From Candidatus Saccharimonadales bacterium (GTDB lineage: Bacteria > Patescibacteriota > Saccharimonadia > Saccharimonadales > 2-12-FULL-41-12): DNA of 60,765 nt. Position 1 is the first letter of the stretch. Every line of letters begins with the position of its first letter. The translations under genes were made by a program, and so were the position numbers. The notes beneath the pieces are model-generated. The model did not search any database. It was given only the letters and a program-made list of their open reading frames with translations, and had not been told where the DNA came from. Below, piece after piece: positions 12,784 through 20,836 of the stretch. Location of the stretch: the NCBI GenBank assembly GCA_036278875.1, contig DASUKF010000030.1, positions 1 through 60,765 on the forward strand, in the 5' to 3' direction.

Positions 12784-13791
12784 ATGGACCAGAAGCCAGA
12801 CAACAACCAGCAGGATGAACAAGCTTCTTTAGAGACCCTTGAGACACCCGCCGGGTCCGAGCAGACCCAGGCAGGCAGCAGCCAGGTTCCGGAAAATCAG
12901 CAAACAACCCCCGAACCGCAGGCTGCCGGGCCCGGGAAATCATTGGTCAGCCGGCTTTTGGACAAGGTGAAGTCATTTAATATATATCTGCTGCTTTTCA
13001 TCCTGGTCATAGTTTTATCCGGACTTATAACTTTCGTGGCATACCAGAAAAGCAAACAATCCGAACAAAAAGGCCCCAACGTTTCCTCCCAGGATATAAA
13101 CCAGGACGTGCTGAAACAGCTGCGCAACAGCAACGTCAGCGTCGGCGAGCCCAAGCAGATACTAAGTGTGGAAGCAAATGCCGTTTTCAGCGGTTCGGTA
13201 CTGGTGCGGGGCGATTTTGAGAGCGCAGGGCAGATAAAATCCGAGGGCAACATAACCACGCCGGGGTTGAACGTAGCGGGTACCGGCACTTTCCAGACTT
13301 TGCAGGCGGGCAAGCTGCAGATATCCGGAGACAGCCAGCTGCAGGGCAACCTGAGCCTGCAGAAGAGCCTGTCCGTAAGCGGTTCCGGCAACTTCGGCGG
13401 TACATTGACAGCCAGCAAGCTGAACGTTCAGTCGCTGGAGCTGGCAGGCAACCTGGTCATCAGCAGCCATATAGCATCGTCAGGCGGTACGCCGTCCAAA
13501 GCAAGCGGTAATGCGCTGGGCAGCGGCGGGACCGCGTCCTTAAGCGGCAGCGACACGGCAGGCACCATCACCATCAATACCGGCGGCAGTCCGCACGCGG
13601 GATGTTTCGTATCTGTCGGTTTCGCCAAGTCGTTCAATAGTACGCCGCATGTAGTAGTAACACCGGTAGGAAGCAGTGCAGCCGCTATAAACTATTACGT
13701 TACCCGTTCTTCAAGCGGCTTCAGTCTATGCACAACATCATCTGCGCAGGGCAGCAAGAACTTCGCCTTCGACTACATCGTCATCAATTAA
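12784..13791 (+). CDS. Membrane-anchored protein with beta-helix-like G/S/L repeats
   Basis: 335 aa. Disordered Q/E/P head, TM IYLLLFILVIVLSGLITFVAY, then quasi-repeats (GNITTPGLNVAGTGTFQTLQAGKLQISGDSQLQGNLSLQKSLSVSGSGNFGGTLTASKLNV) resembling bactofilin-like or polymer-forming beta-helix repeats. Confidence 0.6.
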   Translation: MDQKPDNNQQDEQASLETLETPAGSEQTQAGSSQVPENQQTTPEPQAAGPGKSLVSRLLDKVKSFNIYLLLFILVIVLSGLITFVAYQKSKQSEQKGPNVSSQDINQDVLKQLRNSNVSVGEPKQILSVEANAVFSGSVLVRGDFESAGQIKSEGNITTPGLNVAGTGTFQTLQAGKLQISGDSQLQGNLSLQKSLSVSGSGNFGGTLTASKLNVQSLELAGNLVISSHIASSGGTPSKASGNALGSGGTASLSGSDTAGTITINTGGSPHAGCFVSVGFAKSFNSTPHVVVTPVGSSAAAINYYVTRSSSGFSLCTTSSAQGSKNFAFDYIVIN

Positions 13792-14053
13792 ACATCCAGG
13801 AAGACGGTGACTTGGTTATCGCGCACATGCATAATGCCGCGGTCAATCTTGTATCTTTGCTGCTCCTTGCCTTCACCGCGCACAACGACTTCCCCGGCAT
13901 TCAAAATAGTCATAAATCTATGGTGCTGGGGCAGTACATCAAATGGCCCGGTGTCATTAGTTGCTGAAACACTTACCGCGTTTCCGTCGAAATATGTCCG
14001 AAATGGCGAATATATCTTGATGTGTATCCTGTCATGGATCGCCGCCTTGTCCA

Positions 14054-14054
<1 letters not shown>
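13788..14054 (-). CDS. atpC: F1 ATPase epsilon subunit, beta-sandwich domain only
   Basis: 88 aa (HIKIYSPFRTYFDGNAVSVSATNDTGPFDVLPQHHRFMTILNAGEVVV). Last gene of the atp operon, with its start overlapping the atpD stop (ATGA-type). Confidence 0.85.
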
Positions 14055-16216
<2,162 letters not shown>

Positions 16217-16224
<8 letters not shown>

Positions 16225-17647
16225 TCTTTGCCTCCACGAGCACGTCTTTCTTGAGTTTTTCAACCGTTTTATTGTAGTCCGATTCTTTCTCTACCTTGGC
16301 CGCATAATCATTGACCAGGTTTTTCAGATTGGTAACATCTATCTTTTCCCCGGATTGTTTGTTCAGCACAATGTCCAGCATCAACTGCTGGGACACGACG
16401 CCGTAAACATCCGTAGGCCCCTGGGTCAGGAGCGTGAACACGTTCTTGCCTTTTTCCAGAACCGTCTTGGATTCGTCCGTAAGCTCGGAGCCGAACCTGG
16501 AGAACTCCTCGGCCTGGCGGAACTCTGCTAAAAGCTTCAATGTCTTGGCGGCAAGGTCCTTCTGGTTGTCGGTATGGCCTACACCGCCTACCCTGGTGAC
16601 GCTAAGTCCTATATTGATGGCGGGGCGGACGCCGCTTCTGAACACGTTCATATCCAATATCCATTGTCCGTCGGTTATAGACATGATGTTGGTAGACAAG
16701 AACGAGGTTATATCGCCGCCGCTTGCAAGCACTATGGGTATTGCGGTCAGACAATTACCGCTTCCTTCCAGGCGGCCGGCACGTTCCAGCAGGCTGGAGT
16801 GCGCGTAAAACATATCGCCGGGGTATGAATCTCTGCCCGGACTTACTCCGGAAAGCAGAGATATCTCCCTGTACGCATGGGCGTGGCTGGTAAGGTCGTC
16901 ATAGATTATTATCGTGTCCTGATTCTGCTTCTGCCATAAATATTCGGCCATCGAGCAGGCCACGTAAGGCGCCAGATAAGTCGATATCAAAGAATCGAAC
17001 ATGGTCGAAACTACGACTATCGAGCTTTTGAGCGAATCGGTGGCTTCGAGTTTGTTTATCAGCATATCGACGTCGCTTTTGCGCTTGGCGATAAGACAAT
17101 ATACCGTTATCTGATCGGTGTTCTTCTGGTTGATGGTAAGCTGTGTCGCCAGAGTGGTCTTGCCGGATTTGCTGTCGCCGATTATGGCTATCCTCTGCCC
17201 GCGTACTATCGGGAATATGGAGTCTATGGACATGACGCCGCTTTCCAGCTGGGCTTCCAGGAGTTTCCTGGAATGAAGCGGCGGCGCATCATTGAACACC
17301 GGCCATACGCTGTCGGCGACTATCGGACCTTTGCCGTCCAGGGGATGGCCACTGGTCGATACGACCCGTCCGATGAAATTCTTGCCAACGCGACAGACCA
17401 GCTTGTCATGCTGCAATACGGCCAGGCTTCCGACACTTACGTTCCTGTTGCCCATATGAAGCACTAGTACGCTGTCTTCCATTATCTGTTTTACGAAGCC
17501 TTTGCTTCCGTCCTGAAACAAAACCAGCGAATGCAGATTTATCGGGTTCAAGCCTTTTATCTTGACGGTGAATTTGTCAATCCCCACCACTTCGCCTACG
17601 GGCTGGCCGCTTTTGACCAAACTGTCAAAATGGGTCTGCGCGCTCAT
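16217..17647 (-). CDS. atpA: F1 ATPase alpha subunit
   Basis: Walker A GDSKSGKT, IIYDDLTSHAHAYREISLL, PGRDSYPGDMFYAHSSLLERAG. 476 aa. Confidence 0.92.
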
Positions 17648-18126
17648 TTGGTTTTCTCCAATAGTTCTGACAAAAGGCCCTTACTGTCAGAGAATCTGTG
17701 CCTAAGGCTCATATCGAAAATCTTGTTCGTGGTCCTGACCACGCACCCGACGGATATGGTCGGTTGTATGCCTATTTCTATTATCAGGTCTTCTTCTACA
17801 TTCTGTCTGAACCAGGCGACCATCTTTTTCATTACGGCGGGTGACGGTTCTACGGCGAAGCTTACATGGATTTTCCGGGCACTGGTTCTGACAGCACGTA
17901 AGTTGCCTATCAGATGTTTGCGGTGAGTCTCGTCCAGAAGATTCAGCCCGTTTACCTCGCTGACTTCCTCCAACATCCGGGTTACCTTCGGCAGACTGTC
18001 CACCGTCTTCTGATCACGCAGCCCGGCCTGCAATAGATAATCATCTAGCTTCTCGGCCTCGCGTATGACCCTGCCCAGATCCAGCGGAGTTATGATATCG
18101 GGTGTTAGTTTGAACTTATCGCTCAC
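17644..18126 (-). CDS. atpH: ATPase delta (OSCP) subunit
   Basis: 160 aa, sited between b and alpha. C-terminal pattern VSFAVEPSP ... IEIGIQPTISVGCVVRTTNKIFDMSLRHRF fits the OSCP consensus. Confidence 0.75.
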   Translation of the reverse strand: MSDKFKLTPDIITPLDLGRVIREAEKLDDYLLQAGLRDQKTVDSLPKVTRMLEEVSEVNGLNLLDETHRKHLIGNLRAVRTSARKIHVSFAVEPSPAVMKKMVAWFRQNVEEDLIIEIGIQPTISVGCVVRTTNKIFDMSLRHRFSDSKGLLSELLEKTK

Positions 18127-18131
18127 TTGTG

Positions 18132-18755
18132 TCAGGTCCCTGATTTAATATCTTCAACAATAGCCTGCTTATTGCGTTCCAGCTCACTCAATATATATTC
18201 CAGCTGGTCCTCAAGGCTTATTTGATCGCCGATAGCGCTTATTACGTAATGATTAACGATCTCCGACATATTATCTTCAAAACGCTTTATCATGTGCTGT
18301 TTCTCATTTTCAAAAGCCTCGTTCAGCTGCTTGAGCAATACCTGTCTCTGCTCCTCTATAGACTGCTGGGTCTTATTGATAGAATCCAGCGCTATATTCT
18401 TAGCATCCTGGATTGATTCCTCGTATTTGGTAAAGGCATCCTGGAGCGTATTGGTTATCTCCTTTTTCATATAATCATTCACCTGCGACGTGGTCAGCCG
18501 CAAATCCTGCTGCAGGAACATGGCGTTCTCGCCGATAATTTTTTCAAAATGCAGGCGGCCGCGGTTGCGCAGCTCCTCACGGAACTCATCGTCAAAGATA
18601 TGCTGGACGGCGTCTTCGGCGACCGATTTTATATCCTGTTCCTGATTTTTTGCATCCGGTGCACTGCCCATACGTAGAGCCACCCAGACGAAACCTGCCG
18701 TAGCGCTCAGCAGGGAGCCGACTATCAGTATTATGTTCACATTGTCTTGTAGCAT
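18132..18755 (-). CDS. atpF: ATPase subunit b-like stator protein
   Basis: 207 aa with an N-terminal TM (IILIVGSLLSATAGFVWVAL) and a long charged coiled coil. Assigned mainly by position upstream of atpH. Confidence 0.6.
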   Translation of the reverse strand: MLQDNVNIILIVGSLLSATAGFVWVALRMGSAPDAKNQEQDIKSVAEDAVQHIFDDEFREELRNRGRLHFEKIIGENAMFLQQDLRLTTSQVNDYMKKEITNTLQDAFTKYEESIQDAKNIALDSINKTQQSIEEQRQVLLKQLNEAFENEKQHMIKRFEDNMSEIVNHYVISAIGDQISLEDQLEYILSELERNKQAIVEDIKSGT

Positions 18756-18773
18756 TTGCCCACCTTAAGACGC

Positions 18774-19613
18774 TTAAAGCTTTAGTAGTAAATATACCCC
18801 AAACATACCGCAGATGAAAACGATGATTCCAAGTACGACCACTTGCAGCAAGCCCCGGAGTATCGATGATTTGGACAAAGGATTGCGGCCCATAGCCAGC
18901 AGGCTGCTTTTTGCGCCGCCGTAAAGCATAAGGCCGGTAAGCAGACTGGTAGCAAGGAATACTATACTGGCCAGCCAGATACGCGCGCCGCTGACCGGCT
19001 TTCCGGCTACATTGGAGGACACGTCGCGCAGTATACTGGGTACCGTCTGAAGCTTGGAATTTTTCTGCAGCGGATTTGCGACTATGGATATGTTCACGGC
19101 TATACGGCCCAGGTTTATCTTCTTATTGTCGGATTGCCGGGTAGTTGAGCCTATGCTATCGCCGGAACCGTTGAAGGCCTCGGCAGCTTGGCCGAGCACT
19201 AATGACTGGCTGGTAGTAGCCTTCATCGCTATGCCTCTTAGCGAAGATATACTCAGATAATCACCGGTTTTTATCGGCCCATTCTCGTCGCTTACCAGTA
19301 CTTTGTGCGTGCCCGAATCGGCTACAAATACCGTCTGGTCGGAGCTGGCGATGACGACAGGAGAATCATTCTTTGCTACCACCACGCCTTTCAGTTCGCC
19401 AAGCGTAGCCTGGTCTACCGGTTCGACTTTGGTATTGTCGCTTCTTTTTTCCTTGACCATAAGCCCTTGCTGAAGCGGCTCGTCGGATTTATAGCCGCGG
19501 TCTATTGACTGTGCCTGGCCGGTGCCGCTGAAAACAGCCGGTATGGACATGGCCAGGACCACCAGGAAAAGCAGTCCGGTCAGGATACGTTTATGTATGT
19601 TTGTTTTCAGCAT
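18774..19613 (-). CDS. Exported protein with C-terminal c-subunit-like helical hairpin (no membrane carboxylate)
   Basis: 279 aa. Signal peptide LLFLVVLAMSIPAVFSGTGQAQS and a beta-rich domain of about 190 aa. The hairpin follows: IWLASIVFLATSLLTGLMLYGGA - KSSLLAMGRNPLSKSS - ILRGLLQVVVLGIIVFICGMFGVYLLL. It occupies the slot where atpE normally sits. Confidence 0.6.
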   Translation of the reverse strand: MLKTNIHKRILTGLLFLVVLAMSIPAVFSGTGQAQSIDRGYKSDEPLQQGLMVKEKRSDNTKVEPVDQATLGELKGVVVAKNDSPVVIASSDQTVFVADSGTHKVLVSDENGPIKTGDYLSISSLRGIAMKATTSQSLVLGQAAEAFNGSGDSIGSTTRQSDNKKINLGRIAVNISIVANPLQKNSKLQTVPSILRDVSSNVAGKPVSGARIWLASIVFLATSLLTGLMLYGGAKSSLLAMGRNPLSKSSILRGLLQVVVLGIIVFICGMFGVYLLLKL

Positions 19614-19638
19614 AAGTCAACTAGTTTAACCGCTTATG

Positions 19639-19668
19639 ATTATACTCTTTATGTATCTCCTTAGGCAA
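19639..19668 (-). promoter_or_regulatory. Sigma70-like promoter candidate at the head of the atp operon
   Basis: Read on the minus strand: TTGCCT (19668-19663), 18-nt spacer, TATAAT (19644-19639), 25 nt before ATG 19613. No clear SD in the leader. Confidence 0.35.
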
Positions 19669-19684
19669 ACATACGGGAAGATGC

Positions 19685-20836
19685 CTATCCCACTAGTTCG
19701 CGCAAAGTTTTTACGGTCTGTTTTATATCTTCTTCGGTTGTTTCACGGCCCAGGCTGAAGCGCATGGAACTTCTTATAAGCTCGTCGGAGAGGCCCATCG
19801 AGCGAAGTACGTGCGACGGTTCTTCCGATGACGCGCTGCAGGCTGCACCGGATGCGGCTATGATCCTATGTTCTTCCAGCTCCAGCAGCAGCCGCTCGTT
19901 ATCCACCCCCGGAAAGGTTACATGCAAGTTGTTCGGCAGACGCTTCTTCATAGTCCCGTTTACGGTTGCTCCGTCTATCTTTAGTACTTCGTCATGCAAA
20001 ATGTCCCGCAGCTTCCTGACCCTGTCCGGTTCCGTGGGCTTTATCTGCCCGACAATCTCTATCGCTCTGGCGAAACCGGCTGCTGCAGGCACGTTCGGTG
20101 TACCGCTTCTTAGTCCCCTTTCCTGGTCGCCGCCGAAGATAAGCGGGTTCAACATAGTACCGCTACTGATGAACAATGCCCCGTATTGCTTCGGTCCGTG
20201 TATCTTGTCCGAATTAAAGCTCAGCATGTCCACGCCAAGTCGGCTGGCATGCATATCCAGGTATTGCGTGGCCTGGCAGGCATCGGTATGCAGATACAAA
20301 GGTCTTTCTATGCCTCGTTTTGCGCGAGCGCGTCTTATTCCGGCCAAGCCGGCAGCGATCTTGCTTAGCGGCTGTATAGTACCGACCTCGTTGTTCGCAT
20401 ATATGACACTAAGTAAAACTGTCTCGTCAGTCACCGCCTCCAGCAGTTTATCCGGATCTACCCGGCCGTCTTTTTCCGGTTTTATAAATGAAGTTTCCCA
20501 GCCGTTTTGACCAAGGTACTGAATGGGTTTCAATACGGAATCATGTTCTGTAGCCGTAGTGATTATATGTGCTCCCGGATATTTCGTAGCTGTACCGATT
20601 ATAGCCAGATTGTTCGCTTCCGTTCCGCCTGCCGTGAATGTTATCTCTGTGTGCTTGGCACCCAAAAAAGCCGCTACGGTCTTTCTGGCTTCTTCCAGTG
20701 CGGCTTTGGTTTCGCGGGCTGGCGCATAGGTCGATGAGGGGTTATGGAATTTATCGCTGAAATACGGCTCCATGGCTTTAAGCACCCTGGGGTCCATAGG
20801 CGTGGCAGCGGCGTAATCCAAGTAGATGTATTTCAT
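19685..20836 (-). CDS. Cysteine desulfurase (class V aminotransferase, IscS/NifS-like)
   Basis: PLP-lysine motif SFNSDKIHGPKQYG, catalytic-Cys loop AASGAACSASS. 383 aa. Confidence 0.85.
   Translation of the reverse strand: MKYIYLDYAAATPMDPRVLKAMEPYFSDKFHNPSSTYAPARETKAALEEARKTVAAFLGAKHTEITFTAGGTEANNLAIIGTATKYPGAHIITTATEHDSVLKPIQYLGQNGWETSFIKPEKDGRVDPDKLLEAVTDETVLLSVIYANNEVGTIQPLSKIAAGLAGIRRARAKRGIERPLYLHTDACQATQYLDMHASRLGVDMLSFNSDKIHGPKQYGALFISSGTMLNPLIFGGDQERGLRSGTPNVPAAAGFARAIEIVGQIKPTEPDRVRKLRDILHDEVLKIDGATVNGTMKKRLPNNLHVTFPGVDNERLLLELEEHRIIAASGAACSASSEEPSHVLRSMGLSDELIRSSMRFSLGRETTEEDIKQTVKTLRELVG

Follow-up and report, generated by a model that had tools for sequence, protein, structure and literature searches.

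An F1-type ATPase operon of Saccharimonadales with an exported hairpin protein as its candidate membrane subunit

We analysed gene X, which precedes the genes of an F-type ATPase in Candidatus (Ca.) Saccharimonadales bacterium (GenBank assembly GCA_036278875.1) and encodes an exported membrane protein. The gene lies in a stretch of 60,765 nucleotides, positions 1 to 60,765 of contig DASUKF010000030.1, which is called the window here. We propose, with a probability of roughly 0.55, that X serves as the membrane subunit in a second F1-type ATPase, a divergent one that works without ion translocation. The operon runs X-b-delta-alpha-gamma-beta-epsilon, with all genes on the minus strand (Table 1), and it contains no atpI, atpB or atpE. 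X ends in a two-helix hairpin that resembles a c subunit in layout and in the motif of its loop, and neither helix carries an acidic residue in any aligned member of the family.

The X operon and its family

The gene order tatD-iscS-X-b-delta-alpha-gamma-beta-epsilon was found in 84/84 fetched loci, among relatives down to 38% identity, and the only departures from it were contig ends and a few open reading frames (ORFs) detected in two pieces. A survey of related genomes, which the original prediction had named as a check, thus found X next to the b-like counterpart of atpF at every locus. Searching with the X protein of the window returned 233 homologous clusters (90% identity), and searching with a more central family member returned 1,604. 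When one genome of each GTDB species was scanned, relatives of X were present in 168 genomes. The named genomes with X all belonged to Saccharimonadia, except for one record labelled Parcubacteria, and one X locus lies in the complete 988-kb genome CP065013.1; OY970327.1 is another complete genome with X. No Saccharibacteria genome carrying X was found in PLSDB or INPHARED.

A second clade within the candidate phyla radiation (CPR) was reached via relatives of the beta subunit (loci L086:4772-10637 and L087:4727-10625). Its operon encodes X2 (256-263 aa), a b-like protein (235 aa), delta, alpha, gamma, beta and epsilon (76-80 aa), and no a or c subunit. This operon adjoins rplA-rplK-nusG-secE and stands downstream of a divergently transcribed gene of giant size (>4,600 aa). 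The results showed that X2 (256 aa) and X are distantly homologous (hhalign probability 98.5%, E 1.6e-15). X2 has the same layout, a loop NGIEALGRNPLAS in which GRNP is present, and a helix 2 that has no D or E and carries N at the loop Arg plus 15 (R+15). The beta subunits of this clade were 55-57% identical to those of Levybacteria/Woesebacteria and stood nearer to canonical CPR betas. Because the linkage has been kept across this divergence and in a changed genomic context, we argue that X belongs functionally to the ATPase.

The F1 subunits of the window all scored below the NCBIfam equivalog cut-offs. Alpha scored 391 bits on NCBIfam atpA (cut-off 484), with a match that begins at profile position 24, and beta scored 433 bits on atpD (cut-off 463); gamma and epsilon were likewise under their NCBIfam equivalog cut-offs. 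Alpha is about 10 residues short at its N-terminus, the part by which canonical alphas bind delta. The alpha P-loop is conserved, and the arginine-finger pattern SV[ST]R[VI]G was present in 59/74 relatives. In beta, the P-loop GGAG[VI]GKT and the catalytic motif G[IV]GER[IV]RE were intact in 70/70 relatives, and identity to the full-length matches checked outside the family was 40-49%. Judged by their sequences, the F1 genes are fast-evolving, and the motor that they encode looks catalytically competent and under selection.

The remaining subunits were assigned with varying strength. Epsilon consists of the N-terminal beta-sandwich alone, the C-terminal inhibitory helices being missing; among relatives, the stop-to-stop epsilon ORF ranged from ~69 to ~200 codons. 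The b-like protein gave only weak NCBIfam matches to F0 subunit B models (E ~1e-3), and a PDB search with it returned nothing useful. The TTG at which the listed gamma ORF starts falls well within the 3' end of alpha. Gamma probably starts at an ATG near 16224 (MARLND..., ~13 codons downstream), which gives a protein of ~288 aa; its relatives measure 285-288 aa.

We found no ORF for a canonical c subunit by hidden Markov model (HMM), nor one for an a subunit by phmmer, either in the window or within 10 kb on each side of the 84 loci, and Pfam annotation of the genes neighbouring X operons gave no a subunit. Set against a genuine F1Fo operon (atpIBEFHAGDC), the X operon keeps the order F-H-A-G-D-C, has no a or c, and encodes an alpha and a beta that lie under the cut-offs. 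The original prediction had put X in the slot of atpE. X does take the membrane-gene position of an atp operon, but more than the atpE slot is affected: atpI, atpB and atpE are all missing.

Published gene counts were consistent with more than one ATPase in some of these bacteria. In Table S5 of PMC12592800 (BlastKOALA), atpA, atpD and atpG occur twice and atpB, atpE and atpF once in three complete genomes, namely Ca. Saccharimonas aalborgensis (CP005957.1), GWC2_44_17 (CP011211.1) and Ca. Mycosynbacter amalyticus (GCA_025273655.1) (PMC12592800). The same table lists single copies of atpA, atpD, atpG, atpB, atpE and atpF for TM7x and RAAC3. Bins of the order CAILAD01 (Saccharimonadia) appear there with genes for alpha, beta, gamma and epsilon only and none for a, b or c. 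The oral Saccharibacterium Southlakia has one canonical operon, atpI-B-E-F-H-A-G-(hypothetical gene)-D-C, which is dispensable (PMC10633639). X operons were found in records labelled Ca. Microsaccharimonas and Ca. Saccharimonas, and Microsaccharimonas belongs to Saccharimonadaceae, the same family as S. aalborgensis. On the basis of the published KEGG Orthology counts, the X operon probably represents a second ATPase that many Saccharimonadales have in addition to a normal F1Fo, and the X-type ATPase may be the only one in some lineages, such as CAILAD01. A search with P0126, which followed one with the beta subunit of the window, returned no canonical Saccharimonadales betas and led to the X2 clade.

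Architecture of X and comparison with c subunits

We defined the parts of X from an alignment of 65 homologues and an AlphaFold2 monomer model with a mean pLDDT (predicted local distance difference test) of 86.5. The original prediction had described an ORF of 279 codons with a signal peptide, a beta-rich domain and two C-terminal hydrophobic helices, and both the reading frame, which lies on the minus strand, and this layout were borne out by the model and the alignment. At the N-terminus, a K/R-rich segment is accompanied by a helix at residues 6-29. A34-Q35 is near-invariant among the homologues and is followed by a conserved QGYxSD motif, and signal cleavage probably takes place at A34-Q35. 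The beta strands of the model lie between residues 37 and 179, in a domain of ~155 aa, and a short helix (193-203) comes next. The helices of the hairpin span residues 209-243 and 245-278, with pLDDT values of at least 90, and the loop that joins them is GGAKSSLLAMGRNPLSK, with GRNP at residues 242-245. Residues G242, R243, N244, P245, F266, G269, F271, V273, Y274 and L275 were invariant in the alignment. Searches of Pfam, NCBIfam, PHROGs and PDB profiles gave no sequence match to X.

The position at which canonical c subunits carry their carboxylate, 20 residues after the loop Arg, is occupied in X by Ile263. There is no D or E from R211 to the C-terminus, and none in either helix of the aligned members, as had been predicted. 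The further claim that one Gln is the only polar residue held in part: Q257 (R+14, helix 2) is conserved in at least 90% of the sequences, but the hairpin helices contain S, T, Y and C as well. The loop region contains the basic residues R243, K248 and R253. Helix 1 is ARIWLASIVFLATSLLTGLMLYGG; it has many small residues, no repeated GxG and no GxGxGxG, which agrees with the expected absence of a Gly-rich packing motif. The C-terminal half of helix 2, ending in FGVYLLLKL, is invariant, and in a simple c-like ring of X this half would be expected to face the lipid. Its invariance suggests a protein contact in the outer leaflet, for instance with the transmembrane (TM) helix of the b-like protein, an uncleaved signal anchor or the ectodomain.

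We searched structure databases using Foldseek. The ectodomain matched the cyanophage Pam3 capsid protein in the PDB (8hdt_G, E 1.3e-5), together with Sf11 decoration proteins and, weakly, lambda gpD. In BFVD, the matches were a preneck appendage protein, Mtd_N, DUF2190 and tail-fibre-like proteins, with E-values down to 2.4e-9 and a root-mean-square deviation (rmsd) of 2.7-4.6 Å over ~147 residues. The ectodomain had no sequence match in Pfam or PHROGs, and no catalytic motif was seen in it. An IMG/VR contig (L091:89-4198) encodes a repetitive, fibre-like protein of 1369 aa that carries the core motif of the ectodomain in its C-terminal ~100 residues, with 41% identity to X over 64 aa and the shared motif GQVLVTDQNGNIETGDYICSS (VLVSxxNGxIxxGDYxSxS). 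This hints at a module common to phage fibres and a cellular ATPase subunit. Phage decoration domains and the N-terminal modules of phage fibres are oligomerising attachment domains. The X domain matches them in fold and differs in its setting, a cellular membrane protein linked to an ATPase.

The hairpin was compared with c subunits by structure and by sequence. A c subunit (PF00137, PS00605) is a two-helix hairpin of ~70 residues whose gene lies upstream of atpF-atpH-atpA-atpG-atpD-atpC, and X shares both features; it differs in that a signal peptide and an external domain of 155 residues precede the hairpin in the same chain. The PDB matches to the X hairpin were mostly F-type c subunits. 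Chloroflexus and mammalian c subunits superposed with an rmsd of 1.2-1.7 Å and a TM-score (target) of 0.80-0.90 (9itt_I, 0.90 at 1.2 Å; 6j54_K, 0.80), and the best-scoring match was 4bem_A, a c2 subunit chain (E 0.09). Given the signal peptide and the external domain, helix 1 should start outside and the R/K-rich loop should lie inside, so X would have the topology N-out/loop-in/C-out, as in c. In an hhalign alignment, the R-N-P of X lay in register with the R-Q/N-P of c (columns 34-56 against 34-56).

A c-subunit HMM was built from ten canonical c sequences, and it was validated in that it retrieves F- and V-type c subunits from the PDB. When it was run against 15,002 six-frame ORFs of the loci, the sole matches below E=1 were X proteins, which took 16 of the top 23 ranks with the whole hairpin aligned in register. 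The mean score was 7.0 bits for the real X hairpins, -1.1 for reversed and 0.3 for shuffled ones. The X2 hairpins scored 13 bits, and their loop, IEALGRNP, resembles the canonical IEGIARQPE and is more c-like than the loop of X. Among 628,000 residues of local ORFs, TM hairpins with R[NQ]P at their turn were counted 85 times in X proteins and a single time outside them. The predicted resemblance of the loop to the polar loop of c subunits was therefore upheld, with R-N-P in register by both hhalign and the c HMM.

Other results weigh against our reading. The Foldseek E-values of the hairpin were all at least 0.09 and not significant, and a helical hairpin is a simple fold. The hhalign probability of X against the validated c profile was 2%, and a PDB profile search with X gave no c subunit at E<=10. 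PF00137 gave no match at E<=1 for full-length X and none at E<=10 for 41 hairpins; the profile check of the hairpin that had been set beforehand thus returned no significant similarity. Changing GRNP to GANA lowered the c-HMM score to -0.6 bits, which shows that the loop provides all of the sequence signal. Helix 1 is without the Gly packing motif, and conservation in X peaks in helix 2 and the loop, unlike in c subunits. At the level of the complex, the stalk has a membrane anchor and no a subunit as an evident counterpart to brace against. Finally, the duplicated alpha, beta and gamma genes of the three complete genomes may be the X operon, but this link is a presumed one.

Taken against the features of the c family, X has a hairpin of ~70-80 residues, both ends of which would lie outside, and an R-[NQ]-P loop; a profile match, a membrane Asp/Glu, GxGxGxG and an a subunit encoded alongside are absent. 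X lacks features that define the c-subunit family and is not assignable to it. Because the GRNP change removes all of the c-HMM score, homology of X to c is something that we infer. We lean towards the view that X works where c normally does and plausibly descends from it.

The DNA upstream of X contains the best sigma-70-type match in 13600-19900, TTGCCT and TATAAT at a spacing of 18 nt (10/12 positions). With this site directly before it, X would head the operon. The element TATAAT-CATAAGCG was also present upstream of the X homologue in locus L001, ~25-30 nt before the ATG. The ATG of X has no Shine-Dalgarno sequence in reach, the nearest AAGGAG lying 42 nt upstream, too distant. An element 25-30 nt before the ATG and the absence of a Shine-Dalgarno sequence imply a short leader and Shine-Dalgarno-independent initiation. 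The b-like gene has a good Shine-Dalgarno sequence of its own, AAGGTGGG.

An in-frame GTG within X had been put forward as a possible start for a product of c-subunit size. The codon exists, would yield 82 aa and has no Shine-Dalgarno sequence, as stated, but the internal start is not conserved: the codon-198 position is I or A in X homologues, and in L002 and L004 there is no ATG, GTG or TTG in the 50 codons preceding the hairpin. We rejected the internal start on these grounds. Its lack of conservation indicates that the fusion protein is the unit under selection.

Upstream of X lie a class-V aminotransferase gene and then tatD. In seven loci (L001-L004 and L088-L090), one or two small conserved ORFs (~120-150 aa, no Pfam match) stand between tatD and the aminotransferase gene. 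In the window these ORFs are absent, and the two genes abut (20833/20836).

Table 1. Positions of the X operon, the parts of X and nearby signals in the window
Feature	Position	Strand	Remarks
Gene X	18774..19613	minus	ORF encoding 279-aa exported membrane protein
X residues 1-35	19509..19613	minus	Signal peptide or signal anchor: MLKTNIHKR, hydrophobic helix, GQA/Q end
X residues 36-192	19038..19508	minus	Extracytoplasmic beta domain, phage head-decoration / fibre N-terminal-like fold
X residues 209-241	18891..18989	minus	Transmembrane helix 1, out to in; alignment and AlphaFold2
X residues 242-245	18879..18890	minus	Cytoplasmic G-R-N-P loop; invariant, 65/65 aligned sequences
X residues 246-279	18777..18878	minus	Transmembrane helix 2, in to out; alignment
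b-like peripheral-stalk subunit	18132..18755	minus	207 aa; one N-terminal TM helix and long helical region
delta (OSCP)	17644..18126	minus	160 aa; Pfam OSCP 24.8 bits vs gathering cut-off 22.3
alpha	16217..17647	minus	476 aa, divergent; Pfam ATP-synt_ab E 5e-68
gamma	15358..16263	minus	Pfam ATP-synt E 1.4e-31; listed ORF starts at TTG 16263
beta	14054..15358	minus	434 aa; catalytic motifs GGAGVGKT and GIGERIRE present
epsilon	13788..14054	minus	88 aa; Pfam ATP-synt_DE_N E 1e-16, residues 10-87
Promoter-like site	19639..19668	minus	TTGCCT, 18 nt, TATAAT; just upstream of X ATG; consensus match only
In-frame GTG, X codon 198	19020..19022	minus	Would yield 82 aa; no Shine-Dalgarno sequence

Relation to known ATPases

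The F1-like X0 ATPases of mycoplasmas (Types 2 and 3) power gliding and MIB-MIP antibody cleavage, processes at the cell surface, instead of pumping ions (Beven et al. 2012, PMC3369863; Berlureau et al. 2026, PMC12994834), and by analogy they would be the closest functional counterpart of the X ATPase. Their Protein 5 (MSC_0620 / MMCAP2_0577) combines a signal peptide with a large external part and a C-terminal pair of TM helices (PMC12994834). Both systems comprise an extra, fast-evolving set of alpha, beta, gamma and epsilon with non-F0 membrane proteins, and both occur in tiny, host-dependent bacteria. They differ in that the mycoplasma clusters have no delta or b and include a 12-TM protein and a cytosolic protein, whereas the X operon keeps delta and a b-like stalk and encodes X only, with no 12-TM protein. 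Against the mycoplasma models, alpha reached 262 bits for MSC_0619 (cut-off 520) and 328 bits for MMOB1660 (cut-off 600), and beta reached 375 bits for MSC_0618 (cut-off 570); both scored higher on genuine atpA/atpD than on these MSC_ and MMOB models. X itself matched none of the mycoplasma NCBIfam families, and no sequence relationship was detected.

A WWE3 ATPase operon was reported to contain 'a, b, c' genes without homology to known subunits; among their products is a conserved transmembrane protein, termed a 'putative c subunit', that OP11/WWE3 operons have in common (Kantor et al. 2013, PMC3812714). Compared by description only, these operons probably represent the same or a related phenomenon, and the X2 clade could be this WWE3/OP11 case or the order CAILAD01. 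The report is a one-paragraph remark that assumed an ion-translocating c, and it did not cover the exported domain, the missing carboxylate, the missing a or the Saccharibacteria family (PMC3812714). We found no description of X in the Saccharibacteria/Patescibacteria literature, in which the remark of Kantor et al. (2013) is the nearest precedent. The original prediction had called X a new kind of ATPase membrane partner. The literature searched does not describe X, but the mycoplasma F1-like X0 ATPases and the operons of Kantor et al. precede it as a kind.

Two further systems share single features with the X operon. N-ATPases have the gene order atpDCQRBEFAG; they retain a and a carboxylate-bearing c, add AtpQ and AtpR, and are without delta. 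They resemble the X operon as a second, laterally spread F-type operon beside the normal one. The alt_F1F0 NCBIfam models were secondary matches only (333 bits vs cut-off 750 and 399 vs 752), and the order of the X operon is X-F-H-A-G-D-C. In Acetobacterium woodii (c1, 4bem) and among V-type proteolipids, c-type hairpins without the ion-binding Glu still join the rotor ring. In those rings other hairpins always keep a carboxylate, and the ring works against an a subunit, whereas every copy of X is without a carboxylate.

Proposed mechanism, alternatives and significance

If X is the membrane subunit, alpha3beta3, gamma, the short epsilon, delta and the b-like stalk would assemble as a competent F1 motor. 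X would replace c, its C-terminal hairpin would oligomerise in the membrane, and the G-R-N-P loop would be presented to the foot of gamma/epsilon, like the R-Q/N-P loop of c. Each hairpin would bear a phage-decoration-like beta domain of ~17 kDa on the external face of the membrane. Because there is no membrane Asp/Glu and no a subunit, ATP hydrolysis would be uncoupled from H+/Na+ transport. The energy of ATP could then be delivered mechanically, by rotation or conformational change of X and its external crown, and the target of this output would be some cell-surface process of epibiotic bacteria. Descent from c, ring formation, contact with gamma/epsilon, absence of ion transport and mechanical output are thus what we infer for X. 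A more specific form of this proposal, in which an ion-free ring of X with its crown of external domains, spun by an F1 braced through b and delta, is a rotary shaft across the membrane that does mechanical work on the cell surface, for example on the wall, a surface filament or a host cell, appears rather unlikely. If true, it would be the first rotary ATPase with extracellular torque as its output in place of ion transport or ATP synthesis.

X may instead be an unrelated membrane anchor or adaptor that forms no ring and tethers its external domain, like Protein 5 of the mycoplasmas, with R-N-P as a convergent, positive-inside turn. The lack of significant PF00137 similarity, the loss of the c-HMM signal on the GRNP change and the absence of a Gly motif and a carboxylate would all suit such a protein, and MMCAP2_0577, which has the same architecture, is set away from gamma/epsilon in AlphaFold 3 models (PMC12994834). 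The seven-gene unit, however, encodes no other rotor or membrane partner, while mycoplasmas have their separate 12-TM protein; the length, topology and loop register of the hairpin all agree with c; and X does not match the mycoplasma families. We consider this explanation doubtful, though a serious contender. A looser association, in which X, like AtpI/AtpZ, is no subunit but a co-transcribed assembly factor or exported surface protein, seems improbable. It draws on the position of X as the first gene of the operon, the place of AtpI/AtpZ in canonical operons such as that of Southlakia, and the association of X with the ATPase was observed at the level of genes. Adjacency in 84/84 loci down to 38% identity, together with the second genomic context, is nevertheless tighter than is typical of accessory genes, and without X the stalked F1 would be left with no rotor-side membrane partner. 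In AtpZ-type hairpins both ends lie inside, opposite to the orientation of X. With an expected topology opposite to theirs and no Pfam AtpI or AtpZ match, X was rejected as an AtpI/AtpZ-like leader.

That the hairpin is a working, ion-carrying c, either as the internal GTG product or through unusual chemistry (Q257, Ser/Thr/Tyr) with the a subunit of a canonical operon, is very hard to credit. An amide in helix 2 is conserved, as Q at R+14 in X and N at R+15 in X2, and canonical a subunits are probably present in some host genomes. Yet no member has a D or E in either helix, the internal start is neither conserved nor preceded by a Shine-Dalgarno sequence, and the operon has its own complete F1 and stalk and never an a subunit. 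To our knowledge, all F/V/A rotor rings need a carboxylate (PROSITE PS00605).

What defines a rotary F-type ATPase is that ATP is coupled to an ion flow where a meets the c-ring. In the family described here, which is large and conserved (~1,600 clusters, 168 species genomes and a second CPR clade), the motor and the stalk are kept, and an exported protein that would be unable to bind ions replaces the ion-conducting parts. This suggests that the X ATPase is an F1-like ATPase with an alternative membrane sector, a rotary motor put to another use. If X is in the complex, reconstructions that describe a 'nearly complete F-type ATPase' and ATP synthesis linked to the proton motive force would have misread a different machine. 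The system would also offer a natural experiment on what becomes of a c-type hairpin and a peripheral stalk once ion translocation is removed, and it would point to F1 motors as a general means of driving processes at the cell surface. Cultivated environmental Saccharimonadales, such as Ca. Mycosynbacter amalyticus with its duplicated alpha, beta and gamma, make the X ATPase testable.

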